64,000 nucleotides of DNA from Rikenellaceae bacterium. GTDB taxonomy: Bacteria > Bacteroidota > Bacteroidia > Bacteroidales > Rikenellaceae. Shown here in pieces: positions 931 to 16,953 of this stretch (the stretch's first letter is position 1; every line of letters starts with the position of its first letter). The stretch lies in NCBI GenBank assembly GCA_031548435.1, contig JAVBRA010000007.1, forward strand, positions 67,955-131,954. Reading direction: 5' to 3'. The position numbers and the translations under genes are program-made. The notes beneath the pieces were generated by a model. The model was given only the letters and a program-made list of their open reading frames with translations. It did not search any database and was not told where the DNA came from.

Positions 931-1005
931 CGGGGTGTAGCGCAGTCCGGTTAGCGCACCTGCTTTGGGAGCAGGGGGTCGTGGGTTCGAATCCCGCTAC
1001 CCCGA
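931..1005 (+). tRNA. tRNA-Pro (anticodon TGG)
   Basis: 75-nt cloverleaf read by eye. Acceptor CGGGGTG pairs with TACCCCG (one G-U). Anticodon stem CCTGC/GCAGG has loop TTTGGGA. T-loop is GGTTCGAATCC and the discriminator is A. Confidence 0.9.
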
Positions 1006-1006
1006 C
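961..1006 (+). repeat. attL: 46-bp direct repeat (3' half of tRNA-Pro, from the anticodon loop to the end)
   Basis: Identical 46-mer 'tgctttgggagcagggggtcgtgggttcgaatcccgctaccccgac' recurs at 16908-16953. Flanking bases differ on both sides. Confidence 0.9.
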
Positions 1007-1017
1007 GAATGAAAATC

Positions 1018-1056
1018 AAGAAGTTGCGATATTAGTCGCAACTTCTTTTATTTTTT
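1018..1056 (+). terminator. Rho-independent terminator after tRNA-Pro (supplied by the island)
   Basis: Stem aagaagttgcga / tcgcaacttctt with loop tattag, followed by a T-rich run. Confidence 0.7.
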
Positions 1057-1057
1057 G

Positions 1058-1077
1058 TTTGCACACGATTTGCACAC
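1058..1077 (+). promoter_or_regulatory. Two direct TTTGCACAC copies 11 bp apart (candidate integrase arm-type sites, left end)
   Basis: tttgcacac at 1058-1066 and 1069-1077. The same 9-mer pair occurs at 16761-16782 near the other island end. Confidence 0.45.
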
Positions 1078-1290
1078 AACTCGGGCGATCGTCTGCTTTT
1101 TTATCTTTACGTATGCCCGCCATATTGTCCAAACAGATTGAGACGCAGGGGGGCAAAATAAGGATCTTTTTTTCTGACTAAACAGCGCTCCTTACCAATA
1201 TACATGAATCATTGATTGCAGATCGATTCTCGCGTGCTACAATACGACTGACACCGCATTGGCTTTTTCATCACTTTGAATCCCATTATC

Positions 1291-1674
1291 TCAATTTTTC
1301 TTCCATGTAAACAGCATATCGAGAAGTCGGATTTTCCCGGTGTGTATTTTTCCGCGAATATGCTTCTCCAATGAGGATTCCGTGATCGACAATTCCATCA
1401 ACCCAGCCTCTTTGTCGAACGATACGACACCGAAGTCCACATCCTTATCCTCGATACGAACGACAATCTTCTCTCCCGGATGCAACTCAAAACCACTGGT
1501 CACCCCAACAGTCCCCGCATACGACACCGAATCCATGCGGATAAGGTCTATTTCGACAACCCGGTCTGTTTTTATCGAATGCATCATAAAATAGATGCCG
1601 GCAAGCAATACCACCAGCATAATCGATATGCCGTATTTTACGACAAATGTTGTTTTATGTACCCTCAGTCCCAT
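1291..1674 (-). CDS. Small membrane-anchored protein, possibly a short HlyD-like accessory of the ABC exporter
   Basis: 127 aa with an N-terminal hydrophobic helix 'ISIMLVVLLAGIYFMM'. Its start shares base 1674 with the stop of the upstream ABC gene (coupled). Beta-rich segment 'GTVGVTSGFELHPGEKIVVRIED'. Confidence 0.4.
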   Translation of the reverse strand: MGLRVHKTTFVVKYGISIMLVVLLAGIYFMMHSIKTDRVVEIDLIRMDSVSYAGTVGVTSGFELHPGEKIVVRIEDKDVDFGVVSFDKEAGLMELSITESSLEKHIRGKIHTGKIRLLDMLFTWKKN

Positions 1675-3869
1675 CAGTCGGCCAGTTCCAGTTGGTTCTT
1701 AATCAGATTCAAATACACGCCGTTTTTCTGAATAAGCTCGGAGTGGATACCTGTTTCCTGTATCATTCCGTCTTTAAGCACGACGATCTGATCGGCGCTT
1801 TTCACCGTACTCAGTCGATGGGCGATCACCACAACGGTTTTTCCGACGAAGAAATCGTCGAGGTTCTCGACAATGATGCGTTCGTTTTCGGCATCGAGCG
1901 AGCTGGTCGCCTCATCGAAAAACAGATAATCGGGGTTTTTATACACCGCGCGGGCGATCATGATACGTTGGCGCTCTCCGCCGCTGATACCCGTGCCGGC
2001 CGATCCGATCTTTGTGTCGAGCCTCAGAGGCTTCTCGTCGATGAACTTGCTCAAGTTTGCAATCCGGATAGCGTCGGCCAACCGCTTTTCGTCGGCTTCT
2101 TTATCGCCCAAAATAATATTACGCCGAATGGTGTCGGCAAAGATATAGTTGTCTTGCATCACGACGCCACATACGCCACGCCATTGGTCGGCCGAATATT
2201 CGTCGAACAAGGTGTCGCCTATGAAGATTTTTCCTTGAGTCAAGGGGTAGAATTTCAACAACAGTTTTACAAGAGTGGTTTTGCCACTGCCGCTCTCACC
2301 CACGATAGCCGTTGTTTTGCCGCGTGGAATGACCAGATCGATGTCTTTTAAAACCAATTTGGAATAAGGCCCTTCGTAACGAAAACTAAGGCCGTCCAGA
2401 ACAATCTTATCGCAATGCCTTGGAATGGGTTTGTAAGACTCCCGGTTGTCCTCATCTTCCTGAATATACACCTCGCCTGAACGTTCCATGCTGATTTTCG
2501 AATCCTGAACACTCTGCACAAACCCGATCAGTTGCGACAGGGGCGAACTCATCTGCCCGATGATGTACGATATGCTCATCATCATTCCCAGGGTGATGCT
2601 TCCTTTCACTACGGCAATGGCGATCAGGAGCGTGACGATGATATCCCTCGATCGGTTGATGAGGGTATAGCCGGCAGATTGCACCTGTCCCAGTTTCATC
2701 GACCTGATGCGGATCTCGTAAAGCCGCTGCTGGATATCTTCCCATTCGTTGCGTTTGTATTCCTGAAAATTGTTGAGCTTGATCTCCGACATTCCGCTGA
2801 TCATTTCCAATTTGGCCGTTTGATTCTCAGACCCTATGCGGAACAGTTTATAATCGATCACCTTTCTTTTCTTCAGAAACGCGACCAGCCACACAATGCT
2901 GACGCCCGAGAAGATGAGGTAAAGGAGAAGAATCCGCAAGTCGTACAAGGCGATGATTACAAAATAAACAATGAACGACACGAACGAGAAAAGAGTGGCA
3001 AGCGTCTCCGAAGTGGCGAACGACTCCAGCCGGTAGTGGTCGGAGATGCGGTTGTTGAAATCGCCGGCCGATTTGGTCTCGAAGAACTTGATCGGCAGCC
3101 GCATCACCTTGTAGAGGAAGTCGGAAACCAGGCTAATATTGATGCCCGTCCCCATATAAAGCACCACCCAATTGCGGATGATGCCTATGACGTAGCTACC
3201 GACGAAAAGGGCCAACTGGGCCAGCATGATCGTTACGATCATGTTCAGATTCCGGTCGCCGATCCCCCGGTCGATAAGCGCCTGGGTGAGAAAGGGTGTG
3301 ATCAGCGACACCACAAGTCCCGCCACCATCGCCAGCGACAACTGGAACAATTCGTTTTTATAGGGTCTCAGATAGTTCAGCAGGAACTTCTTGATGTTAT
3401 GCTCGTCCTTGGGCGGTTCCAATTCGAAGAACTGCTCTGTAGGCTCGCAAGCAATCGCAACGCCTTTCTCGCCGCTCAGCCATCCGGCGGCAAAATCATC
3501 TTCGCCGAACCGGTTCTTTCCATAGGCCGGGTCGGCGATATAATAGCGGGATTTACCCCGCGAATTGGTTTGTATCTTATAAAGAACGACGAAGTGATTC
3601 TGATCCCAGTGGATGATGGCCGGCAGCGGGCATTTGTTTTTGAGTTCGTCGAGCGACATTTTGAATGTCCTGGCATTCACACCAATAACCCCAAGACCCT
3701 CAGTAATGCCCGCCACCGACACCCCCTCGCGGCTCAGATATGAAAGATTGCGCAGGTAGATCAACGGATAGGATTTGCCATGGTAATGCGCCACCATGCG
3801 CACGCACGCCGGGCCGCAATCCATCGAATCGAACTGCCGGAATACCTTTAGTCTCCTTTTCTTATCCAT
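1674..3869 (-). CDS. Peptidase C39 domain-containing ABC transporter (double-glycine leader processing and export)
   Basis: 731 aa. The N-terminal papain-like motifs are 'FDSMDCGPACVRM' (Cys) and 'WDQNHFVVL' (His). Six-TM core. Walker A 'GESGSGKTTL', signature 'ISGGERQRIMIARA', Walker B 'LFFDEATSSLD'. Confidence 0.9.
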   Translation of the reverse strand: MDKKRRLKVFRQFDSMDCGPACVRMVAHYHGKSYPLIYLRNLSYLSREGVSVAGITEGLGVIGVNARTFKMSLDELKNKCPLPAIIHWDQNHFVVLYKIQTNSRGKSRYYIADPAYGKNRFGEDDFAAGWLSGEKGVAIACEPTEQFFELEPPKDEHNIKKFLLNYLRPYKNELFQLSLAMVAGLVVSLITPFLTQALIDRGIGDRNLNMIVTIMLAQLALFVGSYVIGIIRNWVVLYMGTGINISLVSDFLYKVMRLPIKFFETKSAGDFNNRISDHYRLESFATSETLATLFSFVSFIVYFVIIALYDLRILLLYLIFSGVSIVWLVAFLKKRKVIDYKLFRIGSENQTAKLEMISGMSEIKLNNFQEYKRNEWEDIQQRLYEIRIRSMKLGQVQSAGYTLINRSRDIIVTLLIAIAVVKGSITLGMMMSISYIIGQMSSPLSQLIGFVQSVQDSKISMERSGEVYIQEDEDNRESYKPIPRHCDKIVLDGLSFRYEGPYSKLVLKDIDLVIPRGKTTAIVGESGSGKTTLVKLLLKFYPLTQGKIFIGDTLFDEYSADQWRGVCGVVMQDNYIFADTIRRNIILGDKEADEKRLADAIRIANLSKFIDEKPLRLDTKIGSAGTGISGGERQRIMIARAVYKNPDYLFFDEATSSLDAENERIIVENLDDFFVGKTVVVIAHRLSTVKSADQIVVLKDGMIQETGIHSELIQKNGVYLNLIKNQLELAD

Positions 3870-5176
3870 TTATTTTTTTCTGCATCGGCTTTGTTGGTCA
3901 TAATGGAAACCCGATCGACCATCGCCTCGTATTTATCTTCTTCTGTCATTCCCAGAGGACATACATTTTCCTCGAAAGCTTCCAACTGGTGTTGGGTGCA
4001 TCCTCCTTTGCACAATGGAAGAATTTTGCATTTCAAACAACTGTCGTTTATGAATTTGCATTCCATTCGATCGTCATACCGTTCATTAAACGAAATTGTT
4101 CCGTCGGTATTTAAAACACCCTCCCGTATTTCCTTTACGAAATCACGGGCAGTACATTTGAATACGTTTCCATCATAATTAATTATGTGGCCGTTGGGCG
4201 TATCTGCATAACAAACAGAATCGGAGAATTCGTTGATCAGCGACATATTCTTTATTCCGCATTCCGCAACACGCTCCCCCATTTTCCCGACCAATTTCTT
4301 CATTCCTTCCGAGTCTTCTGCCTGCCATATTTTTTTGAACATGAAAGATAAATTATCCTTCCATTTCTCGTCGACATCCGAGAATTCATCGATCAAATCC
4401 TCGAACCCCTCTGCCGTATCTTCCGAATAATTGCATCGCACTAATATAGTCATTCCTTTCGACAGTGCGTATTTTATGTTTTCAATGGAGATGTCATAGG
4501 CAGATTTATCGTTCCCGGGCAACCGTTTTATCTTATTATGCTTCTCCCTGTTTCCGTCGAAAGGGACCTGAAAAAAGACCTTCTTTCCCAAAGTTGCCAG
4601 CCGGTCGATCTTTTTCTTGTCCAACAATGTAGCGTTGGTGGTGAACATGATCGGCAAATTACACCCGGTTTGATCGCATACTTTAACCGCATATTCAATA
4701 ATAGGCAGGATAGAAGTATCAAATCTCATGAGCGGTTCTCCTCCGAAGAAAGACAACTGTAAGGTCTTATACTCGCTTCCTTTTTGCTCGATCAGCAATT
4801 CAATCGACTTTCGGACTTCCTCCGTCATGATGCTGTCACTAACATGGGACTCGTAACAATACCAGCATTTGAGATTGCAATCCATTGTCGGGTTGATAAC
4901 CAGATTATAAAAATTTTTGGAATTATTTGCCATCTGGATGGAATCCATAACCCCCTGTTGTTCTTCTCCTATTGAACCCACTACAAATTTCTTCCCAACG
5001 AGATAGGCATAAAATTCCGGATGAATGTTCTGAAGGTCGTCCAGATGATCGATATGTTCGTCGACCAATTGCCTGAGTTCTGGAACAATGGCCATGATTT
5101 CCGCCGTTCTGCAGTTGAAAATAACGTGCCGCCCGTCGAGGTTGTCTATCGCAAAGTTATAATGACTCCATTTCAT
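3848..5176 (-). CDS. Radical SAM / SPASM-type peptide-modifying enzyme
   Basis: 442 aa. 'MDCNLKCWYCYE' is the CX3CX2C cluster motif. A 'FFGGEPL' segment follows. C-terminal Cys-rich block 'CKFINDSCLKCKILPLCKGGCTQH' plus upstream 'CYAD...CTARD' is consistent with auxiliary clusters. There is a ~95-aa N-terminal extension. Confidence 0.85.
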   Translation of the reverse strand: MKWSHYNFAIDNLDGRHVIFNCRTAEIMAIVPELRQLVDEHIDHLDDLQNIHPEFYAYLVGKKFVVGSIGEEQQGVMDSIQMANNSKNFYNLVINPTMDCNLKCWYCYESHVSDSIMTEEVRKSIELLIEQKGSEYKTLQLSFFGGEPLMRFDTSILPIIEYAVKVCDQTGCNLPIMFTTNATLLDKKKIDRLATLGKKVFFQVPFDGNREKHNKIKRLPGNDKSAYDISIENIKYALSKGMTILVRCNYSEDTAEGFEDLIDEFSDVDEKWKDNLSFMFKKIWQAEDSEGMKKLVGKMGERVAECGIKNMSLINEFSDSVCYADTPNGHIINYDGNVFKCTARDFVKEIREGVLNTDGTISFNERYDDRMECKFINDSCLKCKILPLCKGGCTQHQLEAFEENVCPLGMTEEDKYEAMVDRVSIMTNKADAEKNKWIRKGD

Positions 5177-5271
5177 AAAATTGTGGGATTAGTTGTTTCC
5201 GAGAATGAGGCACTCTGTTTTAATAGAGATCCGACAGAGTGCCTCATGATTTGCGTCACATTGTTAATTTA

Positions 5272-5568
5272 CTACTCAGGTTCGGATGTTCCAGTGGGCG
5301 TAGGAGTCGGCGTGGGAGCGGCAGTAGTTTCGCCACAATGGGTTGTGCACTGACTTTTTTTGCACTTCGTGCCTCCATTGAGATTAACGGGACAGTTGGT
5401 ATTACAAGTGACAAGGCAAATACCGTAATTGGCGTTTTCCGCCTCTGCCGCAGCCATTAGAGGTTCGAACGATGAGACCTCTCCAAAACCACCTTTTAAG
5501 AGATGTTCTTCGTTTTTTGTCAAAGGAGTCAGGGCCACCTCCAGATCCATTAATTTCTTTTGTTCCAT
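5272..5568 (-). CDS. Precursor peptide A (double-glycine leader; 6-Cys core; Thr/Pro-rich tail)
   Basis: 98 aa. The leader 'MEQKKLMDLEVALTPLTKNEEHLLKGG' fits the LxxxExLxxGG type. Core Cys spacing is C-x3-C-x3-C-x9-C-x4-C-x3-C. The tail is 'ETTAAPTPTPTPTGTSEPE'. A paralogous leader is at 6544-6810. Confidence 0.8.
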   Translation of the reverse strand: MEQKKLMDLEVALTPLTKNEEHLLKGGFGEVSSFEPLMAAAEAENANYGICLVTCNTNCPVNLNGGTKCKKSQCTTHCGETTAAPTPTPTPTGTSEPE

Positions 5569-5667
5569 AGCATTAGAATTAGCTTTTCTCTACTCATTTC
5601 AGGGCTTTTCGAGATACTCCCATAATTTCTGCAACCGGTTTGTTTCTTCATTCGGATCGGAACTTTA

Positions 5668-6544
5668 GAGGTTGTTTTAAAATTTAGTTAGGTAATCGCT
5701 TGATCATCAATTTAATCATCGCGAGGTATATCATGTTTTCTTCGTATTTTGTTTCGAACTCATATTCCCGGCTCAATCTTCGGTACGACTCCCACCAGGC
5801 AAATGTCCGTTCCACCACCCACCGCTTGGGCAAGGGTTTGAATTTATTGGATTTATCCTTGCGAAGCGTAATCTTCAGCGTGCACTTTAACTCCTTCTTT
5901 ACAACGTCCTTTAACTCACCGCTATAGCCACCGTCTGCATAAATCTTTTTCATCCGCCCGAACTCCGGTTTCAACTGTCCCATCACATCTATCGCCGCCT
6001 TGCTGTCGTGCCGATTGGCCGGATGAACTTTCACCGCCAACATCAACCCTTGGGCATCAGTGATGATATGCCGTTTGCGGCCTTTCACACGTTTACCACC
6101 GTCGATACCGCGCTCCTTACCGCGATATGTGCCATGAACACTTTGAGAGTCAATAATTCCCACACTCGGCGAAGTCTCCTTTCCTGCGCGGCGGCGAAGC
6201 AAGCCTCGCAAATAATCGTGTACCTTTTTGAAAGTCCCGGCAAGGCTCCATTTGCGGAAGTAGTAGTAAACAGATTGCCATGCCGGAAAATCTCCGGGCA
6301 ACTGATGCCACTGACAGCCGGTCTTTAACAGGTAGAAGATCGCATCAAATATCTCTTTCAATGAACGTCGGCGCTTGCGTTTGTCGCCAATTATGCCTAA
6401 TATTGTCGCGTATTGGTTATCGGTCAGATTGCTCGGATATTGTTTTTTCATTCTTTATGTGGTTGAGAACTATAAAGATACGAAAAATATCCGACAATCT
6501 ACTGATAATCAATTATTTATATCTGTAAATTTCAAAACAACCTC
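5668..6544 (-). mobile_element. IS5-family insertion sequence (~0.88 kb)
   Basis: 19-bp terminal inverted repeats match 18/19: 5668-5686 gaggttgttttaaaattta versus the reverse complement of 6526-6544. Flanking TA dinucleotides (5666-5667 and 6545-6546) are the likely target duplication. There is a single DDE transposase ORF. Confidence 0.8.
5684..6451 (-). CDS. IS5/IS4-superfamily DDE transposase
   Basis: 255 aa. N-terminal 'LTDNQYATILGII...IFDAIFYLLKTGCQWHQLP' is a DUF4096-like HTH typical of IS5-family transposases. C-terminal 'YADGGYSG' and 'VVERTFAWWESYRRL' follow. The stop codon lies inside the left inverted repeat. Confidence 0.85.
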   Translation of the reverse strand: MKKQYPSNLTDNQYATILGIIGDKRKRRRSLKEIFDAIFYLLKTGCQWHQLPGDFPAWQSVYYYFRKWSLAGTFKKVHDYLRGLLRRRAGKETSPSVGIIDSQSVHGTYRGKERGIDGGKRVKGRKRHIITDAQGLMLAVKVHPANRHDSKAAIDVMGQLKPEFGRMKKIYADGGYSGELKDVVKKELKCTLKITLRKDKSNKFKPLPKRWVVERTFAWWESYRRLSREYEFETKYEENMIYLAMIKLMIKRLPN

Positions 6545-6810
6545 TAAGATTTCTCTGTCGACGAGTTGCTACTCCCAGATCCGTTGGATTTACATCTTCT
6601 TTTTTTCTTTTTCGTATCTTCCGTTCCGGCTCCATTGCGACAAGTGCGGAAGCAAATCAGCGCATTGGTGTTGGTCTTAGTCTCTCTTTTTGCCGTTGCA
6701 GCGGGTTGAAATGAAGCGACTTCACCAAACCCTCCCTTCAACAGACGTTCTTCGTTTTTTGCCATAGGCATCAGGTTCACCTCCAGATCCATTAATTTTT
6801 TTGGTTTCAT
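6544..6810 (-). CDS. Precursor peptide B (double-glycine leader; 3-Cys basic core; Ser-rich tail)
   Basis: 88 aa. The leader 'MKPKKLMDLEVNLMPMAKNEERLLKGGFGEVASFQP' is near-identical to precursor A through about residue 36. The core is 'ALICFRTCRNGAGTEDTKKKKRRC' and the tail is 'KSNGSGSSNSSTEKS'. Confidence 0.75.
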   Translation of the reverse strand: MKPKKLMDLEVNLMPMAKNEERLLKGGFGEVASFQPAATAKRETKTNTNALICFRTCRNGAGTEDTKKKKRRCKSNGSGSSNSSTEKS

Positions 6811-6853
6811 AATCTAAAGTTTAATTGTTTAGTTACTTGTACAACTCCGATAT

Positions 6854-9250
6854 TTATTCGAGCGGCGCTCCAAAGGATTTCCGTTCAGCGTCGACTTTCT
6901 TGGCTTTCTTATCCCCTCCGCTTTTAAAACTGTAACTTAGGGAAAAATTCAGCGAGGTAACCGGGGACACGGTTCGTGTCTGATAGTTGTAGTAATCGTT
7001 GTGAATGCCCGAGGTATCCGAATTCTTGAAAAGAATGCTACTGATCCCAACACCTGCCAGCAGTCTGTTCTTGAATAGAAATTTATAGCCGCTGATATCG
7101 ATACCGTAGCTGGGCGTTCTTTTGTAATATCCTTCTTCCTGCCCGGTAGCCCCTCTGAACGACAGGCTGCCGCCCCAATTCCCCTTGAACGAGAACGAGT
7201 TGTTGATAGACAGTCGTGCCACATTGCCGGTATAATCGACATCCGGATTCGAGGTCTTCATAATCGCGAACGCTGCCTGCGGATTCATGCTCCACCATTT
7301 GCATATCTTCACGGGATAGCCGGTGCCGAACATATGGGCAACCTGTCTGCCTGCATTTACCGGCATGACGTAAGTGACGAGCGGATCGGAGGCATCGGTG
7401 AAGGTTTTAGGAAAGACCACATCGTCTATCCGATAATAGTTATAATAGACCTGCCATTTGTTCCGAAGCACGTAGCTCACCTGCAACAGATGCCGGCTGT
7501 CCGGTTTCAGCAGCGGATTTCCGACAGAATACGAGTGGTCGGACAAGGGAATGACGACCGGGTTAAAGAGATTATAGGTCGGAAACGACAGGGCCCGTTT
7601 GTAGGTGACATTCACCAATGTACCCTTCTGGCGATTGAAAAAACAGGCGATCCCCACATCGGGATAGATCCCGAAGTAATTCCGGTTTACGACCGTATCT
7701 TCCTTGAAGGAAGTGAACCGGGTGGTGTTCCATGTGGCATTCAGCCCCGCATTGAACGAGAAACGCCCGATTTCCGAAATGTATTCGGCATAGCAGTTAA
7801 AGTCTTGTCCGTTGTTGGTGAAATCGTCGCTCTGGCCGGAATCGGCCACCCAATTCCCGGATGTGTAGTTCTGATAAACCAGCTTGCCGGTGGTGTTGCC
7901 CGATGCGAAATAGCCGCCGAAGTCCAGTTCGGAATTCCCAACCATCACTTCGAAATGTACCTCGGCATTAAACAGGTCGTCCGGGTTCATATCGCGCATA
8001 TCCCGGGTTTGCGACAGGTCGGAATCGCCGGAGACCAATGAGGTATAGTCGTAGGTGTAACACCCGTTGTTTCGTACCGGTGTATTGGTGTAATCCACCT
8101 GAATGTTCATATTGGAGCCTTCCTCGTCCAGATCCAACAGGTAGTTCAGCACGCCGTAATACTCGTCGGTGCGGTTGTTCACCTGCGATTTATACGACGT
8201 CCACTCGAGCGGCGACCCCGAATAGTCGGATGTTTCGGAGAGGGAGCGCCCGGACAAATCGCTGCGGGTGCCGTAGTAACTGAAATTCCCGCCCAGGGAT
8301 TGTTTCTCATCTATATCGTAGACAAGGCTCAGGATATTCGAGAACGTATTGGTGCCGGTGGTGTTGGCCACATCGGTGTTCATCCTGACCTGGGAGCCGG
8401 GATAATCCCCGTCGGTGACGCGCTCGGTGAAATTGTCGGAATAGGAATAGCCCGCCTGATCGTAGACGCTCCATTTCTTGTACCTGTAATTGATCGTTCC
8501 GGTGATGCTTTCGCTCTTAAAACCGTTTTCGTCGACCGAGAGGTTGTTGTTCACATTGCCGTAATACCCGTTCTCCAGATTCTTCTTCAGTCTGATTTTT
8601 ATGACCCCACCGACCACCTGGGCGCCGTATGCGCTGCCGGCGACAGGAGTGACCTCGATGCTTTCGATGTCCTCGGCCCGGATACCGCCCAGTTCGTCGT
8701 TCCGTTTCAGCTTGCGCCCGTTGAGGTACACCCGGTCGACGTTGAGGCCATTGACCTTCAGCCCCTCGTGCATGGTAACTCCCGGAAGGAAACCCAATAC
8801 CCCATAAGCCGACTTGCCTTTGGCAATGGGATTGCCCTGCATACTGACAGTATACTTGTTCGACATCCGCCGGATGAATTCGCCCTTTACGACCACCTCG
8901 TCGATTTTAACGGCTTTGGGGCTCAGACGGATGGTATCCAGGGTGATGTTATGATCCAGCCGGAGCGTCTGCGAGTATTCCTCGTAAGCCATGTGCGTAA
9001 CCCGGAAAACATAGTCGCCGGTTTCGATGCCGCTGATAACAAAACCGCCATCCTGACCGGAGAACACCCCGCCTACCGTCGGCCCGCCCGAGGCGCGTTC
9101 GACGGTCGCGGAACACAGGCCAAGCACCTCTCCGGTTGCAGACGTCACAACCCCCGACAGGGAATGTTTCTGGGTATTCTGCCCCCATGCTGAAGTTGAA
9201 ATACAGAAACACACACACCAGACAAAAATCTTTCGTATAATTTTCCCCAT
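6854..9250 (-). CDS. TonB-dependent-receptor-type outer membrane beta-barrel with an N-terminal carboxypeptidase-regulatory-like domain
   Basis: 798 aa. Signal peptide 'VWCVCFCISTSAWGQ'. 'LSGVVTSATGEVLGLCSATV...GGFVISGIETGDYVFRVTHMAY' is CarbopepD_reg-like. The plug-like segment is 'DRVYLNGRKL...IESIEVTPVAGSAYGAQVVGGVIKIRLKK'. A long Tyr/Asn/Gly-rich barrel follows. Confidence 0.75.
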   Translation of the reverse strand: MGKIIRKIFVWCVCFCISTSAWGQNTQKHSLSGVVTSATGEVLGLCSATVERASGGPTVGGVFSGQDGGFVISGIETGDYVFRVTHMAYEEYSQTLRLDHNITLDTIRLSPKAVKIDEVVVKGEFIRRMSNKYTVSMQGNPIAKGKSAYGVLGFLPGVTMHEGLKVNGLNVDRVYLNGRKLKRNDELGGIRAEDIESIEVTPVAGSAYGAQVVGGVIKIRLKKNLENGYYGNVNNNLSVDENGFKSESITGTINYRYKKWSVYDQAGYSYSDNFTERVTDGDYPGSQVRMNTDVANTTGTNTFSNILSLVYDIDEKQSLGGNFSYYGTRSDLSGRSLSETSDYSGSPLEWTSYKSQVNNRTDEYYGVLNYLLDLDEEGSNMNIQVDYTNTPVRNNGCYTYDYTSLVSGDSDLSQTRDMRDMNPDDLFNAEVHFEVMVGNSELDFGGYFASGNTTGKLVYQNYTSGNWVADSGQSDDFTNNGQDFNCYAEYISEIGRFSFNAGLNATWNTTRFTSFKEDTVVNRNYFGIYPDVGIACFFNRQKGTLVNVTYKRALSFPTYNLFNPVVIPLSDHSYSVGNPLLKPDSRHLLQVSYVLRNKWQVYYNYYRIDDVVFPKTFTDASDPLVTYVMPVNAGRQVAHMFGTGYPVKICKWWSMNPQAAFAIMKTSNPDVDYTGNVARLSINNSFSFKGNWGGSLSFRGATGQEEGYYKRTPSYGIDISGYKFLFKNRLLAGVGISSILFKNSDTSGIHNDYYNYQTRTVSPVTSLNFSLSYSFKSGGDKKAKKVDAERKSFGAPLE

Positions 9251-9255
9251 ACCCG

Positions 9256-10203
9256 TTATTTGGCGTTTATTTTATCGGCCACAGCGTCATTGATTCTGCA
9301 AAAATTGTCGTATCCGGCCGTAAGTATATCCGAATAATAGCCCCGGAGATTTTCGACTTCCTCTTGCCGTTCCTTCATCATCTCCGCGGCCCGGACATAA
9401 TTGATGTAATTGATTCCTTTCATTGCCCGAATGACTTTCCTCCTCAACACTTCCGGCAATACGGTTTCGGCAATGAACATTTTGTTGTAGAAAATCTCCA
9501 GGCTATCCATCACGTAAGGAAATTTATTCCGGAATAGATGACCTATCACCACATCGGTCAAGAGGCGGCATCGCCCTCCTTCCATCCATGCCTTCAGGCT
9601 GATGTATGCTTCTTCACATCCATACAGCCTCAGACCCTCGAATCCTCGCAAATAATTCCAATACTCCTTGGTGGCGGCATAGCATGCCCCCAGTACACAG
9701 GGAACATCGACGAGGTTCGTATCCGAATAGATGTTATAGGTCACCCAAGCCACATTGACTACTGCCCGTTCTTTCGGCTCCAGAGCCTTAAAGTAGGCCG
9801 CATAAGGAGGTTCGCATCCGGTTTCCGCTTTTTTATCAAAACTCCACGATTTGCAGCGGCAACAATAGATCGCTCTTGGATCTTCTTTTATCGCGCTCAC
9901 GATTTTAAGCCACCAGTCGTCATGATAAAACCGCATATGCCCGTCTATAACCAGAAAATAAGGAGTCTGACAAGCATTGATTCCGGCCTGTTTGGCCGGG
10001 CCGCTTCCCAGGCGATCCGAATGTTCGACATAAAGCGTCCCGTATCGTTCAGCCACCGACTTATAATCAAATCCGTCATCCGAGGCATCGTTTACAAGAA
10101 CAATATCCACAGCGTCTCCGGCCGTTCTCTTAATCTCTCTTATGGTGATTTCAACTTCGTTCCCTTCGTTGAGAAAAGGGATGACTACTGTCAGTTCATT
10201 CAT
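9256..10203 (-). CDS. Glycosyltransferase, polypeptide-GalNAc-transferase-like (GT27/GT2 fold), paralog 1
   Basis: Start moved to 'MNELTVVIPFLNEG', matching its paralog; its ATG overlaps the upstream stop as ATGA. Motifs are 'IVLVNDASDDG', 'FLVIDGHMRF' (DxH) and 'LYGCEEAYISLKAWMEGGRCRLLTDVVIGHLFRNKFPY', which resembles the Gal/GalNAc-T motif WGGEN.E.SFR.W.CGG...GH.FR...PY. Confidence 0.7.
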   Translation of the reverse strand: MNELTVVIPFLNEGNEVEITIREIKRTAGDAVDIVLVNDASDDGFDYKSVAERYGTLYVEHSDRLGSGPAKQAGINACQTPYFLVIDGHMRFYHDDWWLKIVSAIKEDPRAIYCCRCKSWSFDKKAETGCEPPYAAYFKALEPKERAVVNVAWVTYNIYSDTNLVDVPCVLGACYAATKEYWNYLRGFEGLRLYGCEEAYISLKAWMEGGRCRLLTDVVIGHLFRNKFPYVMDSLEIFYNKMFIAETVLPEVLRRKVIRAMKGINYINYVRAAEMMKERQEEVENLRGYYSDILTAGYDNFCRINDAVADKINAK

Positions 10204-11156
10204 ACCAACTGAGACTTCTTTGTTAATTCGGCTATAAACCATTCGTTTATTTTCGAAAACCGATCGTAACCGCCCTTAAACACAGAAGCGTAATATTCTC
10301 TGAACTCATCGACCTTACCCTTAACAGGCTCCATAAGTTCCCTTGCCTGAGCATAATTCACATAATCGACCGCCTTTATGGCCTTTATCACTGGTCGGGC
10401 AATGGACTCGGGTAAAATGGTTTCAGCAATAAACAACTTGTTGTAGAATAACTCCAAATAGTTAACTGCATATGGAAACTTCTTTCGGAAAAGATGCCCT
10501 ATAGTCACGTTATTGACGAGGCGGCATCGCCCGCCTTCCATCCATGCCTTCAGGCTGATATAGGCCTCATCGCAACCATACAGCATCAAGCCATCGACGC
10601 CTCTTAAATAGTTCCAATACTCTTTCGAGGCAGCGTAACTCGCACCCAACACGCACGGAATATCAACAATTTCTGCTCGTGAATGGATATCGCGATTGAT
10701 CCACGTGACATCCAGTATACCTCTCTTCTCGGAATCGAGCAACTTGAGACAGGCGCCATAACCCATGGTTCCTTTTTCTTTCTTCTCTTCAAAATCCCAC
10801 ATCCGGCAGCGAGTACAGTAGATCGCTCTCGGATCGTCTTTGATCGCTTTCACTATCTCGATCCACCAATTATCGTTGTAAAATCGCATATGCCCATCGA
10901 TGATGAGAAGGTAGGGCGTTCGACATAAACGAACACCTATCTCTCTTGAAGATGCGCAACCTTGCCGCATTTGGTTCTCAACATAGCGCGCATTATATTT
11001 CACTGCAACACCACTGTAGTCGAATCCGTCCGTTGAAGCATCGTTGATCATGATCACATCCACCGCCCCACCGGCCGTTCGCCGAATCTCCTTCAGCGTT
11101 GTTTCAACCTCGCCTCCTTCGTTGAGAAAAGAGATGATGACGGTGAGTTCATTCAT
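10200..11156 (-). CDS. Glycosyltransferase, polypeptide-GalNAc-transferase-like, paralog 2
   Basis: 318 aa. 'MNELTVIISFLNEGGEVE', 'VIMINDASTDG', 'LLIIDGHMRF', 'LYGCDEAYISLKAWMEGGRCRLVNNVTIGHLFRKKFPY'. It aligns by eye along its full length with 9256-10203. Confidence 0.7.
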   Translation of the reverse strand: MNELTVIISFLNEGGEVETTLKEIRRTAGGAVDVIMINDASTDGFDYSGVAVKYNARYVENQMRQGCASSREIGVRLCRTPYLLIIDGHMRFYNDNWWIEIVKAIKDDPRAIYCTRCRMWDFEEKKEKGTMGYGACLKLLDSEKRGILDVTWINRDIHSRAEIVDIPCVLGASYAASKEYWNYLRGVDGLMLYGCDEAYISLKAWMEGGRCRLVNNVTIGHLFRKKFPYAVNYLELFYNKLFIAETILPESIARPVIKAIKAVDYVNYAQARELMEPVKGKVDEFREYYASVFKGGYDRFSKINEWFIAELTKKSQLV

Positions 11157-11994
11157 AGCCGAAGTTCAATAATTTGCGTTCGATCAATCCGTCAAATAGA
11201 GAATACGCTTCATTGTAATAGGTTTCTTCACCGGCCTCCCCGTTCAAGTAGGCCTCCCGGAGCCGCAGAAAATTCTTCAACCGGAACCCTCCCGCCCCCA
11301 ATTTGATTATGGACAGGTAATAATCGATTAATTCGTTTTTCACATGTCGTGTTCCTTCCTGCAATTCATCATACCTGGTAGCGGACAGTTGTGCGGGAGA
11401 ACGGCGGTACTTCAACAACACCTCTTGGATGTTTGCGAAACACCCGACTTTGATAATATCACACCACATTTTATAATCATCGGCGAATGAATACCCGTCC
11501 CGGTAGCGGATATCATGGGCATCCAAGATGGATTTTCGTATTATCGTCGACGGATGCGCCATTTGACAGGAGTGAACCATGTTCGATATAATATCTTCAT
11601 GATTCGCACTTGTTTTTATTACTCCCGTTTCGCTTCCAAATAATTCGATCCAACTGCCGCAAACAGCGACATTCGGATTGGACTCCATAAAATCAACCTG
11701 TTTTTGAATGCGCCCGGGAAGCATAACGTCATCGTGATCCATCCTCACAATATACTTTCCCTGGGACAGGTCGATTCCTTTGTTAAGGGTCTCTAGACGG
11801 TTATGATCAAATTGAAATAATTTGATCCGATGGTCATCATAAGATTGTATGATTTCAATCGTGCTGTCGGATGAACCGTCATCCACGATTATCAGCTCAA
11901 AACCCTTGAATGCCTGCAATAATATACTGTCGACAACTTCAATAATGAATGCTTCCGAATTATAGGTAGCCATCAAAACAGAAACATCGCACAT
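11149..11994 (-). CDS. Family 2 glycosyltransferase
   Basis: 281 aa. 'VSVLMATYNSEAFIIEVVDSIL.Q', 'ELIIVDDGSSDST' and 'VRMDHDDV' are the classic GT2 N-terminal Rossmann and DxD pattern. Confidence 0.85.
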   Translation of the reverse strand: MCDVSVLMATYNSEAFIIEVVDSILLQAFKGFELIIVDDGSSDSTIEIIQSYDDHRIKLFQFDHNRLETLNKGIDLSQGKYIVRMDHDDVMLPGRIQKQVDFMESNPNVAVCGSWIELFGSETGVIKTSANHEDIISNMVHSCQMAHPSTIIRKSILDAHDIRYRDGYSFADDYKMWCDIIKVGCFANIQEVLLKYRRSPAQLSATRYDELQEGTRHVKNELIDYYLSIIKLGAGGFRLKNFLRLREAYLNGEAGEETYYNEAYSLFDGLIERKLLNFGYE

Positions 11995-12140
11995 AATGTA
12001 ACCATAAAATTTTATGTAAACATAAAAAAAAAAATCAATTCATGCAACAACAAATGATTAGATATGTTACCGGGAGCCTGAAAAGGGCCGGTTTTTCATC
12101 GTTCCTCTGTTGTAATAAAAACTATACAAGCAACATCCCC

Positions 12141-12170
12141 TTTTAAAACAGCCACCTCAAAGGGTGGCTG
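12141..12170 (-). terminator. Rho-independent terminator separating the island maintenance module from the glycosyltransferase/RiPP operon
   Basis: On the minus strand, stem cagccacc / ggtggctg with loop ctttga is followed by TTTT. It lies just downstream of the 12195 stop. Confidence 0.6.
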
Positions 12171-12194
12171 TTTAGCATTCATCGCATGGAAGAA

Positions 12195-12554
12195 TTACGC
12201 CGGGTCGTCGGAAAGGTATTCTGCCATCTGACTCGGGGTAAGACCGTGGAGGGAGTCTGGGGCATCGGCAGGCAAATGAGATAGCACCTCTGTCATTTGT
12301 GCATGGGTGAGCCGCTCTTTAAAGATGCTGTTTTCTTTGCGCTCCAAATAATCAGCCCATTCTTCATCGGTAAAATAGGGACGTTTCTCTTCGCGCGTCA
12401 GCGGCGGGCCTATGAATGAGATAACGTCAGTAACACGAGGCGGTTCGTCCGACCCGATGATGCTCTCGGACAGGATAATCACAACGCGCTCCTGTGCGCC
12501 CGGTTTGTTCATCATCGACATCATGCGATCGATCTTATCCTTCTTCGTTTCCAT
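12195..12554 (-). CDS. Hypothetical protein (island 1)
   Basis: 119-aa ORF, acidic, with no motif I recognise. It overlaps the upstream ORF by 20 nt, consistent with an operon. Confidence 0.5.
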   Translation of the reverse strand: METKKDKIDRMMSMMNKPGAQERVVIILSESIIGSDEPPRVTDVISFIGPPLTREEKRPYFTDEEWADYLERKENSIFKERLTHAQMTEVLSHLPADAPDSLHGLTPSQMAEYLSDDPA

Positions 12555-12882
12555 TCAGTTGATAAATTTGTTTGATTTTTTCTTCGAGTGCGTCGACCAC
12601 TTTGTCCGGCGCGTTATGCAGAAACCTCTCAAGTGCGGCAAATTCCGCTTCGATCTGCTCCTGTATCGATATGGGCGACATTTTAGGTGTCGTATAGGCC
12701 ATCAGCCGCTCGACGATCGCCCAGCGGTCTTTCGGGTCGAGGGCTTTCAAATCCGCCTCCAGTTGCGTCCGGTTGCCGTCGATGAGTTGCCGTATCCAAT
12801 CTCGCATAGACGCTGTCACCTTGTTCGGTTTTCCTTTCGGGCGCCCTTTCGGATTGCCTGTCTGCCCTTTACGCTGCGCCAT
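12535..12882 (-). CDS. Hypothetical protein with a basic N-terminus 'GNPKGRPKGKPNK' (DUF5681-like, tentative)
   Basis: 115-aa ORF. The G-N-P-x-G-R-P-K-G N-terminal motif is common in small proteins of Bacteroidales mobile elements and phages (from memory). Confidence 0.5.
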   Translation of the reverse strand: MAQRKGQTGNPKGRPKGKPNKVTASMRDWIRQLIDGNRTQLEADLKALDPKDRWAIVERLMAYTTPKMSPISIQEQIEAEFAALERFLHNAPDKVVDALEEKIKQIYQLNGNEEG

Positions 12883-12898
12883 AATATGTAACTCAATG

Positions 12899-13819
12899 TT
12901 ATTTTAGTGTCGTTAGTCCGTAGTTTTTGCAGATTCCGAAGAATGTGCCGATGCCGGTGCGGGAACAGGTTCGAAGGCATCGGTCATACTGCCGGTCGCA
13001 TTCTTTGGGTCTGTATTTCGACGATTGCGCCGAGATGGCATGATACCATCCCCGGCCACTTTCTCCAAATTCTGCGGCTAACGCACGGCCAATTGCATAC
13101 CATTCATCGTAAAAGTCCGTGATGTCGGTACCTGTCTGCTCGATCATATCTACCAGTTTGCGCACCCGGAGAGCCGTTCTATCTGACTCCGACGGCGACG
13201 GGGGTACGTAGCGCATAATAGATTCGGGGGTCAACATCCTGGTAAATACCTCCGCATTGGGATTGTAATAGGGTTGAGGATCGTAACTCGCACCGCGCAA
13301 CCGTGCTATGTCACGGCAGCCAGCATCGACAACCACTCCCCGACCCTGCAATTCGAAAGCGAGAGCAGCAAAGTGTTCGGTATGCCGGTCTGGGTATGCG
13401 ACGCGAAACAACAAAAACATCCCGTTCCCGCCCGCAGACAGACCGGCATACAACAGCCCCGGCAAGTCGACGACCGACGATTTAACGGTCTCCCAATCGC
13501 CGATATCAAGGTTTTGGTCGCCATCAATGTCGATGCAGATGATCCCGGTGTACCGAATAAGGCCGTTGTTGCACCGTTTCGAGAACACTCCGCTCGGGGT
13601 GATCGCCGGAAGCCGCATCTTGAGTACCCGGCGCTCGACTTTATCAGGACACGCCCGGATGGCCTCAACCTGTTTTCGATAGGTTGAGGCGAAGAGGAAG
13701 TCCGCAAGATCAACCTCCCTGCAAGGGCGCGAGTCGGTGTAATTCCGGAATACCGAAACCGAAACTTTTGAGGGCTCCCTCTCTTCTACCTCAGTCATCC
13801 TATTCATATTCCTAATCAT
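12899..13819 (-). CDS. Primase-like replication protein (BT4734/VirE_N-like N-domain plus PriCT-2-like C-domain)
   Basis: 'LPAITPSGVFSKRCNNGLIRYTGIICIDIDGD' resembles the VirE_N/BT4734 family. The C-terminal 'YDEWYAIGRALAAEFGESGRGWYHAISAQSSKYRPKECDRQYDRC' resembles PriCT-2. The start was chosen at an internal Met (13819; 13807 and 13798 are alternatives) to avoid an 82-nt overlap. Confidence 0.55.
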   Translation of the reverse strand: MIRNMNRMTEVEEREPSKVSVSVFRNYTDSRPCREVDLADFLFASTYRKQVEAIRACPDKVERRVLKMRLPAITPSGVFSKRCNNGLIRYTGIICIDIDGDQNLDIGDWETVKSSVVDLPGLLYAGLSAGGNGMFLLFRVAYPDRHTEHFAALAFELQGRGVVVDAGCRDIARLRGASYDPQPYYNPNAEVFTRMLTPESIMRYVPPSPSESDRTALRVRKLVDMIEQTGTDITDFYDEWYAIGRALAAEFGESGRGWYHAISAQSSKYRPKECDRQYDRCLRTCSRTGIGTFFGICKNYGLTTLK

Positions 13820-14141
13820 TATCCTTATCGGGGGTTTTAGGGGTTTTGGAAACCCCGTTGGAGGTTTTTCGTGGTCTGCCTCCAAGTTTACCATAATCAG
13901 CCCCCTTCATGCCGTTTTTACGATTTTTTACGCATGTGGCCTCATAACGCTCATTCATCTCAACCACAAAAGGTTCGATGAACTTCCACGCTACCAGTAC
14001 TGAGCCATGAAGATTTTGCGGGTAAATGCCCTCGAATTGGTATTCCATTAAAACGGTAAGCAACTGGCCTCTCTCCTCAACAGATAATGCTTTGATAGCC
14101 CCCGTATGCTGGCGGTGTATCATCAACGTGTCCTTTCTCAT
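13812..14141 (-). CDS. Hypothetical protein, paralogous to 14138-14377
   Basis: 109 aa. 'LLTVLMEYQFEGIYPQNL' parallels 'LVTALSDYHFHGKQPRDL' in the neighbouring ORF. Basic tail 'GGRPRKTSNG'. Confidence 0.5.
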   Translation of the reverse strand: MRKDTLMIHRQHTGAIKALSVEERGQLLTVLMEYQFEGIYPQNLHGSVLVAWKFIEPFVVEMNERYEATCVKNRKNGMKGADYGKLGGRPRKTSNGVSKTPKTPDKDND

Positions 14142-14377
14142 AACTTGAAGTCTTTGGAGGTGACTATTTTTAGGACACTGAATATGCCCTCCAGCCGGGC
14201 TGGAAGGTCTCGGGGTTGTTTCCCGTGAAAGTGATAATCAGACAGGGCCGTTACAAGCAGCCCGGACTCTTTATCCTCAAGATCCAAGAAGAGATCCTTG
14301 AATTGTTCCGGGATGACGAAGTATTCTTCTTGTTTATTCATAAACACCTCCTTTTTGATCGGAATCAAACAGTTCAT
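14138..14377 (-). CDS. Hypothetical protein, paralogous to 13812-14141
   Basis: 79-aa ORF (alternative start Met13 at 14341). Its stop overlaps the downstream start. Confidence 0.45.
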   Translation of the reverse strand: MNCLIPIKKEVFMNKQEEYFVIPEQFKDLFLDLEDKESGLLVTALSDYHFHGKQPRDLPARLEGIFSVLKIVTSKDFKL

Positions 14378-14386
14378 GTCGGCCTA

Positions 14387-14746
14387 TCATTTACGACGCG
14401 CAGAAGCGGCAATAGTGAGGGCGGCATCGAACTGCCTGGCGCTTTGCCTGACCTTGGATTCGACCCATACAGTCAACTCGACACGAGAAAAGGAGAGTTT
14501 TTTGCCGATCCGTCGGCATGGGATCTTGCCGCCTGCTGTTGCATTGTAAAGACTGCCCCGAGTGAGATAGCATCCTTGTGACGCAAGAAAAGAAAGCGCG
14601 TCATCAACATTAAGAATGTCAGAGGGAGGCTGGGTGTTGCTAACGGGAGGGATCTGCGCCAGTCGCTCGCAGATCAGATCATTAAAGAACTGGCGGGCTT
14701 CAGCGATTGTCATTGCCGCCAAAGGCAGTGATTCATTTGTGGTCAT
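14387..14746 (-). CDS. Excisionase-family helix-turn-helix DNA-binding protein
   Basis: 119 aa. 'LNVDDALSFLASQGCYLTRGSLYNATAGGKIPCRRIGKKLSFSRVELTVWV' fits the HTH_17/excisionase pattern (HTH, then 'IP..R.G.....F...EL..W'). Confidence 0.65.
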   Translation of the reverse strand: MTTNESLPLAAMTIAEARQFFNDLICERLAQIPPVSNTQPPSDILNVDDALSFLASQGCYLTRGSLYNATAGGKIPCRRIGKKLSFSRVELTVWVESKVRQSARQFDAALTIAASARRK

Positions 14747-14918
14747 TCCATCTTAGGATTTGGCAGGCATCATTACCTGCGTTAATAAAATGGGCCGCAT
14801 AACATTACCCACTACGGCCCGTAGTTTTTCCCCTTCGGATGTGGGTGCCCGGCAACTTTACCGGGATTGCTAATGCAAAGATGAAAAATAATTTTAAAAC
14901 CTCAAACGCATTTGCAGA

Positions 14919-14940
14919 AATGAGAACCAAATGAGAACCA
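14919..14940. repeat. Tandem 11-bp repeat aatgagaacca x2
   Basis: Exact tandem duplication in the 205-bp intergenic gap between the excisionase-like gene and ORF 14952-15503. Confidence 0.6.
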
Positions 14941-14951
14941 TGACACCCATC

Positions 14952-15503
14952 CTACTTCAACCGCGATAATATATTTTGCATCTGAAGCACCTCATCTTCG
15001 GTTATTGCCCGCTTGCCGGGAATATCCTTTGCGCCATCATATGCAGACAAATACGTATCAATAAGCCTGTCCGTTCCAATATTGGAAATTCTTTCACGAA
15101 AGCACCCATACATTGACCGCTTGCTTTTTGTCCACGTTATCACCTGCGACTCTCGTAACGCCAACAATAAAATGGAGAACTCCCGGCCTCCTATATCGCT
15201 AAACTTCGATATAACCGGATCAACTAATTCAGGACTCACAAATAGATCCTCCAGCGACAACCCACTATTTCTCTTTTGGACGAGCCCCCGGATTCTATCA
15301 AATGCAGATTGCTTCCACATCAATTCGCGCTTCACAGTGGCTGTTATATGTACATTATTCGGAAGGCTCCCTCCAAAATACTCTTCTGCGATACGTTTTG
15401 ATTCTTCCATTGCCGTCGGGCTATCGTCATAGCCTACCCGATACTCAAAATCATCTTTTGAGATACGCAAATGATCCAATGATAGCCCCTTGTCGTCTTT
15501 CAT
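14952..15503 (-). CDS. Hypothetical protein co-transcribed with the integrase
   Basis: 183-aa ORF. Its ATG overlaps the integrase stop (15500-15503). No recognisable motif. Confidence 0.5.
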   Translation of the reverse strand: MKDDKGLSLDHLRISKDDFEYRVGYDDSPTAMEESKRIAEEYFGGSLPNNVHITATVKRELMWKQSAFDRIRGLVQKRNSGLSLEDLFVSPELVDPVISKFSDIGGREFSILLLALRESQVITWTKSKRSMYGCFRERISNIGTDRLIDTYLSAYDGAKDIPGKRAITEDEVLQMQNILSRLK

Positions 15504-16729: not shown

Positions 16730-16760
16730 CTATCTGCATGTGTTTTGTGTGGATCAAAAA

Positions 16761-16782
16761 TTTGCACACACTATTTGCACAC
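16761..16782 (+). promoter_or_regulatory. Two direct TTTGCACAC copies 13 bp apart (candidate arm-type sites or int promoter region, right end)
   Basis: tttgcacac at 16761-16769 and 16774-16782, between the int start (16729) and attR (16908). Confidence 0.45.
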
Positions 16783-16907
16783 AAATATAACGATTATTAT
16801 TAAATAACTTCAAATTAAATGAGAATTATTCTCTATATTTACTCTGTAAAACAACCATTTACGGATTAATATGAATTATTTAAAAACCACATGAAGTTAA
16901 ATTATTA

Positions 16908-16953
16908 TGCTTTGGGAGCAGGGGGTCGTGGGTTCGAATCCCGCTACCCCGAC
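16908..16953 (+). repeat. attR: displaced 3' half of tRNA-Pro (46-bp direct repeat)
   Basis: Identical to 961-1006. There is no 5' half (no acceptor 5' strand or D-arm upstream), so it is not a functional tRNA. Confidence 0.9.

Follow-up and report, generated by a model that had tools for sequence, protein, structure and literature searches.

Two short open reading frames (ORFs) on the minus strand of the Rikenellaceae DNA analyzed here (64,000 nt of contig JAVBRA010000007.1, in the following called the window), A (5272..5568; 98 amino acids plus stop codon) and B (6544..6810; 88 amino acids plus stop codon), are best explained as two paralogous precursor genes of one pathway for a peptide made on ribosomes and modified after translation (RiPP), carried on a mobile Bacteroidales island; we give this account as a whole a probability of roughly 0.55. 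Judged from the sequences, A and B are very probably real RiPP precursors: as a first-pass annotation had proposed, they possess a double-glycine (GG) leader and adjoin the genes for a radical S-adenosylmethionine (rSAM) enzyme with a SPASM domain and for a peptidase-containing ABC exporter (PCAT) of the C39 type, both with intact catalytic motifs. The sequence Gly-Gly-Phe-x-x-Val, which reaches beyond the GG, recurs in about 60 related, hitherto undescribed precursors and is therefore, by all appearances, a real functional signal.

In the pathway proposed, the N-terminal stretch of about 36 residues would dock the precursor on its maturation enzymes. A CteB-like, thioether-forming rSAM/SPASM enzyme with a domain resembling a RiPP recognition element (RRE) would link the Cys residues of the core to carbons in the side chains of residues close by; across the family the partner would mostly be the Asn of an NxxC unit, in A and B maybe Thr or other residues. 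Family 2 glycosyltransferases (GT2) would attach sugars to the Ser/Thr/Pro-rich tail at the C-terminus while the peptide is still in the cytoplasm, after which the PCAT would cut behind Gly27 (LLKGG/F; the slash marks the cleavage site) and export the peptide, a 127-residue protein with a single transmembrane (TM) helix and a β-barrel of the OMP_b-brl_3 type assisting its passage through the envelope. The segment following the GG, F-[GAS]-x-[VIL]-x-[TV]-x-P, would serve the maturase as a strand-like element for recognition; as its place is on the core side of the C39 site, it would remain part of the exported peptide if no second protease removes it.

Both ORFs and their translations, as well as the Cys spacings, the basic patch and the two C-terminal tails described in the first-pass annotation, were found exactly as given there. 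Each ORF matches a hidden Markov model (HMM) of the leader (E 8e-23 for A, 2e-22 for B). The leader of A (residues 1–27; 5488..5568, minus strand, as are all segments of A and B) ends in LLKGG and displays the double-glycine pattern L-12, T-11, E-8, L-4, K-3, G-2, G-1; the conserved segment behind it (residues 28–36, FGEVSSFEP; 5461..5487), delimited by the family alignment and by comparison with B, is succeeded by a linker and Cys-rich core (residues 37–78; 5335..5460), with Cys at positions 51, 55, 59, 69, 74, and 78, and by a Ser/Thr/Pro-rich tail (residues 79–98, GETTAAPTPTPTPTGTSEPE; 5275..5334), in which nine of ten residues of the best 10-residue window are Ser, Thr, or Pro. In B, the leader (residues 1–27; 6730..6810), aligned with that of A and with those of the family, is followed by the conserved segment FGEVASFQP (residues 28–36; 6703..6729), recognized from the alignments and the codon comparison, and by core and tail (residues 37–88; 6547..6702) with Cys at 53, 57, and 73, a KKKKRR patch and a Ser-rich end. 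The cysteines are thus separated by x3, x3, x9, x4, and x3 in A and by x3 and x15 in B. Within the N-terminal 36 residues 27 are identical (BLASTP E 1e-21), which agrees with the nearly residue-for-residue match noted at first; to call the remainder unrelated was an overstatement, because the BLASTP alignment extends to residue 74 and includes a common N-x-N..IC..TC element and a basic patch followed by Cys. A distant relative from locus L006 reads GVCFGTCNIYCP where A has GICLVTCNTNCP. The exact A protein is encoded on two metagenome contigs, adjoining the same rSAM, and B is present in a public protein collection as P0122, with its start called at an internal Met. The iterated leader HMM detected no third precursor copy in the window. 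No relevant Pfam or NCBIfam model matched A or B even at E 10, TIGR01847 and TIGR04149 included, and none matched ten relatives scanned likewise, one of which reached 6.9 bits with TIGR04149; an assignment of A and B to either of these two families was rejected on that ground.

The nucleotide sequences indicate that the resemblance of A and B is, on codon evidence, not a trivial leftover of recent duplication. Codons 1–36 are 79% identical at the nucleotide level; beyond codon 36 the ungapped identity falls to 32%. Of the differences in codons 23–36 (LLKGGFGEVSSFEP), 10 are synonymous and 2 are non-synonymous but conservative; 5 of the former and both of the latter fall into the codons for residues 28–36. 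That the changes in codons 23–36 are mostly synonymous indicates translation of this frame and purifying selection on the residues before and after the GG. Two blocks of leader codons, 5–11 (5536-5556 in A, 6778-6798 in B) and 18–21 (5503-5517 and 6745-6759), are nucleotide-identical, perhaps as a result of patchy gene conversion or because the RNA itself is constrained. Patchy conversion within the leader is what could be put forward for the notion that the shared 36 residues have no function, being due to recent tandem duplication or gene conversion, or that the ORFs are not translated at all. This notion is highly improbable and, on sequence grounds, already contradicted by the codon data and the family-wide motif: against it stand the ratio of 10 synonymous to 2 non-synonymous changes, the occurrence of the motif in metagenomes of gut, soil, groundwater, and termite origin, in 64 unique precursors encoded beside rSAMs which are only 31–45% identical, and the fixed position of the ORFs beside the rSAM gene.

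The family emerged mainly from the surroundings of rSAM genes. There are 1287 relatives of the rSAM at E 1e-30 or better, the closest non-self one being 45% identical, and beside each close relative examined there is an ORF of 75–100 codons whose product begins with the same leader and has Cys in its core and a tail rich in Thr and Pro. The loci of these close relatives also carry GT2 genes and the outer-membrane barrel gene; a PCAT gene is present in L007/L008, L016, L017, L018, and partly in L009, and L016 has two paralogous precursors, like A and B. A metagenome scan seeded by the rSAM alignment alone yielded 80 further loci with 3 kb flanks (gut, soil, groundwater, and termite samples; rSAMs 31–40% identical), most of which show a small ORF with the same leader beside the rSAM. 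The total came to 64 unique precursors, most of them obtained by reading the DNA around rSAM homologs, so that the search for homologous small ORFs next to homologous rSAM genes, proposed at the outset as a check, was positive in dozens of loci. Searches with the peptides themselves returned less: an exhaustive search of 1.84 billion representative proteins with the leader-profile HMM gave 16 matches, a profile of five sequences retrieved 8 proteins, a word-indexed protein search with A retrieved A itself only, and of 90 metagenome stretches selected by a back-translated leader pattern 0 were confirmed by tblastn, probably because the peptides are too short. A scan of genome representatives brought up rSAMs of only 32–33% identity (in Segatella, Prevotella, and a metagenome-assembled genome of a groundwater Bacteroidia). 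We define the GGF-leader family by [KRx]GG with F, I, or V following at +1, small side chains at +2 and aliphatic ones at +4, by a Cys-containing core, and by location beside a homologous rSAM/SPASM gene; A and B conform to this definition and are the top matches of the family HMM.

Anchored on the GG, the alignment of a close clade of 16 members has its most informative column at +1 (Phe in 16/16; 4.7 bits); G, A, or S at +2, V, I, or L at +4 and T or V at +6 follow, often with a Pro near +8, while +3, +5, and +7 are weaker. Such alternation fits a β-strand that would touch a partner with one face. Among all 64 precursors, +1 is Phe in 59, Ile in 4, and Val in 1, +2 is S, A, G, or T in 52, and +4 is I, V, L, or F in 56; the conservation past the GG, which the first-pass annotation had pointed out for A and B, is thus family-wide and under purifying selection. 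An HMM built on only the 24 residues up to the GG retrieves this set of precursors again; having been seeded from the very same set, it reduces ascertainment bias but does not remove it. Upstream of the GG (16/16 in the clade), Leu is present at -4 in 14/16, L, I, or M at -12 and L, I, M, or F at -15 in all, T or S at -11 in 14/16, and Glu at -8 in 11/16. The consensus for C39 leaders comprises GG, GA, or GS, hydrophobic residues at -4, -7, and -12 (and -15), and often Glu at -8 and Ser or Thr at -11 (PMC10885120). Because the leaders fit it at -15, -12, -11, -8, and -4, the first GG looks like the site of the PCAT, and the conserved segment would belong to the core side.

The putative maturase is a radical SAM/SPASM protein of 442 residues with an N-terminal RRE-like domain (3848..5176, minus strand; PF04055). 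It contains CX3CX2C at Cys 100, 104, and 107, and its seven-Cys SPASM motif is complete (CX13GX4C at 322–341, CX2CX5CX3C at 380–393, and C406). The closest solved structure, by sequence as well as by fold, is that of CteB, and matches over the full-length fold are CteB, SuiB, and TigE; an AF2 model (pLDDT 86) has a β3-α3 domain of the RRE type at its N-terminus, at about residues 1–85. The best NCBIfam matches are thioether or ranthipeptide maturases, all far below cut-off (bits/cut-off): geopeptide TIGR04280 136/400, TIGR04463 132/525, PapB NF047865 105/340, and SCIFF TIGR03974 73/425. Thioether chemistry is, to judge from these sequence and fold relationships, somewhat more probable than not. 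The exporter (731 residues; 1674..3869, minus strand; PF03412, E 1.2e-30, with PF00664 and PF00005) has the C39 motifs QFDSMDCG, HWDQNHFVVL, and ADP, that is, catalytic Cys, His, and Asp are in place. Behind it a protein of 127 residues with a single TM helix is encoded (1291..1674, minus strand), a candidate for a small periplasmic adaptor. A protein of about 130 residues with one N-terminal TM helix is kept after the PCAT gene in L007 (11897-12298) and L016 (8352-8756), 26–31% identical to it; in L018 an ORF of 133 codons (3917-4318) occupies the same position, with no similarity to the 127-residue protein detected. The latter matches NF045999 (MAG1140 family) weakly (E 0.0024), a family which is the partner of a Mycoplasma PCAT family, and it could be the periplasmic adaptor so far "missing" from the PCAT systems of Bacteroidales.

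With respect to the cores, the C-x3-C spacing had at first been likened to the CXXX-repeat targets of some rSAM maturases. This analogy was rejected: TIGR04115, the CXXX-repeat maturase model, gives the window rSAM 56 bits at a cut-off of 350, and the context of Cys is different. Family-wide, 146 of 322 core Cys have Asn at -3, a 3.95-fold enrichment over an already Asn-rich background, and 96 of 326 have Asn at -1; the commonest Cys-Cys spacing is x1 (CxC), followed by x3 and x4. The repeating unit of the family is, by this count, NxxC or NxNC and not a CXXX repeat. An NxxC motif is converted to an Asn-Cys β-thioether by NxxcB (PMC9389541).

The association of glycosyltransferases with mucin-like tails suggested at first was supported by co-occurrence: Ser/Thr/Pro tails and GT2 genes go together in a table of loci (12/3/8/33; Fisher p 6e-5, uncorrected for phylogeny), and the three loci with a tail and without GT2 are truncated contigs. 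All 20 GT2 loci encode a precursor with at least 6/10 S/T/P in its best core window; except in L048, where a Thr tract precedes a terminal Cys, the tail extends at least 15 residues beyond the last Cys. Glycosylation of the tails is, on this pattern, an even bet. The general Bacteroidetes O-glycosylation motif is D-(S/T)-(A/I/L/V/M/T); judged by eye, it is absent from the tails of A and B. In the majority of 14 loci (L024, L026, L029, L033, L041, L043, L044, L048, L066, L068, L077, L079, L084, and L086) a protein of about 800 residues encoded directly upstream of the rSAM fuses two GT2 domains and a LanC-like domain which scores below threshold; the precursor is encoded downstream there, and behind an S/T/P tract it has a hydrophobic G.F.FF terminus (e.g., FGLFGFF or GFSFVF), reminiscent of an outer-membrane β-signal or a membrane anchor.

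Which partner reads the segment behind the GG can be approached through a natural contrast. The C39 domains of L098 (..IEGG/S) and L069 (..LAGG/F) are 89% identical, but their rSAMs share only 52% and their RRE regions 41%; the rSAMs of L069 and L052, both with GG/F, are 66% identical. With C39 domains this similar and rSAM and RRE so divergent, Phe at +1 follows the lineage of the rSAM rather than that of the peptidase, and the comparison favors, as far as sequence can tell, recognition by the rSAM over recognition by the C39 domain. That the GGF segment is a recognition element for the maturase which is retained after cleavage at the GG is our tentative preference, held at somewhat less than even odds. 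An unlikely alternative, in which the PCAT itself requires F-x-x-[VIL] for cleavage or for threading of the peptide into its transmembrane cavity, can draw on mersacidin, whose exporter MrsT needs GDMEAA after its site, and on reported contacts between the PCAT transmembrane domain and its cargo (PMC10885120). The i, i+3 spacing of F+1 and V+4 also resembles that of the pairs -15/-12 and -7/-4 in C39 leaders, and in L050, L059, and L065 a second canonical GG leader has its positions -15 and -12 exactly at the F and L behind the first GG, a hint that GGF-x-x-L may derive from, or double as, the start of a C39 recognition helix. Yet the same 89%-identical C39 domains serve GG/F and GG/S precursors, and loci of Segatella copri with a 44%-identical PCAT and the same type of outer-membrane protein use GG/N. 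Nested leaders of this kind (e.g., ..ETLSGGFSVLASDQLLKLKGGFHIP...) occur, upstream of the rSAM, in L050, L059, L063, and L065.

Lying beyond a canonical C39 site, on the side of the core, the segment might also be a module of the mature peptide which acts after export, for instance while the peptide traverses the OMP_b-brl_3 barrel or by binding a receptor on a target cell. Class IIa bacteriocins carry a conserved YGNGV box after their GG site, which offers an analogy, and the barrel gene is a constant member of the clusters; S. copri clusters, however, have the same type of barrel without the motif, and the motif is short and gives way to a variable linker instead of a folded domain. We consider this role improbable. 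Removal of the leader in two steps, the PCAT cutting behind GG27 and another protease, in the periplasm or outside the cell, then taking off FGEV..P and perhaps the linker, is somewhat less improbable than a requirement of the exporter, though still unlikely; the functional leader would then comprise about 36–45 residues, and the product would have its true N-terminus further downstream. There is precedent in cytolysin, lichenicidin, and mersacidin, each of which loses a conserved hexapeptide after PCAT cleavage (PMC10885120); several subfamilies have a second GG 5–25 residues after GGF (e.g., GGFGKIKGG, GGFS.VYDE....GG, and SGGFSVLASDQLLKLKGGF), and the related cluster L017 has a gene for an S41 peptidase directly upstream of the outer-membrane protein gene. 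On the other hand, A and B lack any further GG, GA, or GS ahead of their first Cys, and no protease gene lies in the island of the window; the S41 gene at 29783-31180 is outside it and probably unrelated to the cluster. Trimming in two steps is compatible with retention of a maturase recognition element after the first cut, the two not being exclusive. The S41 gene of L017 (3977-5479) is a candidate for a second-step protease; a LanC-like and a GT4 gene are further members of that cluster.

Several points weigh against the account of a thioether-bridged, tail-glycosylated peptide whose maturase reads the GGF segment. The rSAM misses the curated cut-off of each named maturase family tested. Position -7 of the leader is an invariant Glu, where canonical C39 leaders are hydrophobic. 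A contains one NxxC unit (CNTNC) and B none, so the peptides of the window may be cross-linked differently from the family norm, with other partners in the linkage. The co-occurrence of tails and GT2 genes ignores phylogeny, and short contig flanks limit the detection of GT2; moreover, the GT2 enzymes reach only 14 bits with the SunS family model TIGR04195 (GT2a, E 0.017; cut-off 350) and could serve a polysaccharide instead. The contrast between rSAM and C39 domain is drawn from one or two pairs of loci, and the L098 precursor was assigned by position only. The chemistry, the glycosylation of the tail, the point of cleavage, and the role of GGF are deduced from sequence. Finally, in this strain A, the rSAM, and the exporter may have fallen silent because of an insertion sequence (IS) that separates B from A.

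This IS5-family element (877 bp; 5668..6544), on which the first-pass annotation of the interval was silent, has a transposase ORF on the minus strand (5684-6451; NF033580, E 2e-63) and terminal inverted repeats matching at 18/19 positions, with TA/TA flanks. Its final base is the G of B's TAG stop codon; removed in silico, it leaves TAA at the same place and a B-A spacer of 96 nt, similar to the 79 nt between the two precursors of L016. The junction of IS5 and A recurs on an independent metagenome contig, L001. A scan for sigma-70 promoters and terminators gave no excess over shuffled sequence, with a model ill-suited to Bacteroidetes promoters.

The genes form a co-directional, operon-like block on the minus strand, in the order of three GT2 genes, the barrel gene, B, A, rSAM/SPASM, PCAT, and the 127-residue TM protein. 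The GT2 proteins (all PF00535, minus strand) comprise 281 (GT2a; 11149..11994), 318 (GT2b; 10200..11156) and 328 residues (GT2c; 9256..10242); related loci have counterparts of the first two, and GT2c has homologs of 52–63% identity in the closest related loci. The barrel protein (798 residues, CarboxypepD_reg and OMP_b-brl_3; 6854..9250, minus strand; PF14905, E 1.5e-54) is encoded in most related loci. The entire cluster lies on a 15.9-kb island (1007-16953) at a tRNA-Pro gene (931-1006, plus strand), the 3' end of which (961..1006) is repeated perfectly and directly as a second 46-bp att copy at the far end of the island (16908..16953, plus strand). A tyrosine integrase gene (15500-16729) is situated just inside the far repeat, a BT4734-like primase gene (12899-13894) also lies within the island, and the GC content of the island is about 0.475, compared with 0.533 for the window. 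The tRNA-Pro island and the interruption by the IS show the cluster to be mobile and possibly decaying in this strain.

Two groups of relatives deviate in their leaders. A distant sister system of Segatella copri and Prevotella (L003, 9749-9919, L004, and L005) has the leader ..VVVTGG/N and a compact CNNCQCNNCGC core; the L003-type cluster consists of precursor, rSAM, outer-membrane protein gene, and PCAT, and adjoins integrase and mobilization genes. In an rSAM subclade (L073, L087, L097, L098) the leaders end in EGG/G or EGG/S instead of GG/F, and a gene for a flavoprotein (HFCD/LanD-like) is found between precursor and rSAM, with an additional nitroreductase-like gene in L087 and L097.

Bacteroidales dominate the human gut, and of the modified peptides predicted for them hardly any has been characterized. 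The signature ..LKGG-F-small-x-aliphatic, known from about 60 distinct sequences, provides a handle for genome mining of a family which the Pfam and NCBIfam models miss. A recognition signal apparently located on the wrong side of the cleavage site bears on the delimitation of leader and core and on the engineering of RiPP pathways, and the pairing of S/T/P tails with glycosyltransferases suggests glycosylated, thioether-bridged peptides, a combination of which no report was found. The literature, searched in an incomplete collection, contained no paper on a GGF leader or on rSAM, GT2, and mucin-like tail together; strings of the LKGGFG type led only to unrelated virology and vaccine papers, and glycosylated rSAM RiPPs of Bacteroidetes only to general reviews and the 2023 mining paper discussed below. 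It is conceivable, though doubtful, that the family constitutes an undescribed class of Bacteroidota RiPPs, with NxxC-type thioether peptides cross-linked by an rSAM, a mucin-like O-glycosylated tail, export by PCAT, mini-adaptor, and barrel, and spread on small integrative islands. In that case the leader would be bipartite, the GG lying between an upstream helix read by the exporter and a downstream GGF-x-x-V strand read by the maturase.

Among known systems, the ranthipeptide or SCIFF systems CteB/CteA, PapB/PapA, and NxxcB/NxxcA share the architecture of RRE, rSAM, and SPASM and the Cys-rich cores; CteB is the closest structure, and the substrate motif of NxxcB is the NxxC unit found family-wide here (PMC9389541). 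They are Firmicutes systems, however, without GT2, mucin-like tails, outer-membrane barrel, or GGF segment; the window rSAM is far below the curated cut-offs, and A and B are poor in NxxC. Glycocins (SunA/SunS/SunT) have in common with the window a GT2-family transferase beside a GG-leader peptide and export by a PCAT, glycosylation being expected before export, but they contain disulfides without involvement of an rSAM and one or two defined glycosites, compared with the poly-Thr/Pro tract here, and GT2a of the window falls as short of TIGR04195 as given above. Class II lanthipeptides (cytolysin, lichenicidin, and mersacidin) likewise possess a conserved short segment right after GG, GA, or GS, which is needed by the PCAT or trimmed later (PMC10885120); they are a different RiPP class with other modifying enzymes, their segments are acidic hexapeptides ending in E/A as opposed to F-x-x-V-x-T-x-P here, and the island of the window encodes no second protease.

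Closer by origin is the "GG-Bacteroidales" system (TIGR04148/TIGR04149/TIGR04150), noted in gut genomes (PMC4573289), which also combines a Bacteroidales rSAM maturase with a GG-leader precursor; the window rSAM attains 61 bits against a TIGR04148 cut-off of 300, though, and the window has no pseudo-rSAM partner. Clusters of rSAM, PCAT, and GG-leader genes in Bacteroidales have been cataloged by genome mining (Fernandez-Cantos et al. 2023, PMC10352776), and they correspond to the present one in host order, rSAM, C39-ABC exporter, GG precursors, often an outer-membrane protein, and the lack of a recognizable membrane-fusion protein; none of them has a characterized product, and in the text of that survey as consulted there is no mention of a GGF leader, of NxxC cores, or of S/T/P tails with GT2. 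The system of the window is thus best read as a variant of these Bacteroidales rSAM and PCAT RiPP systems.

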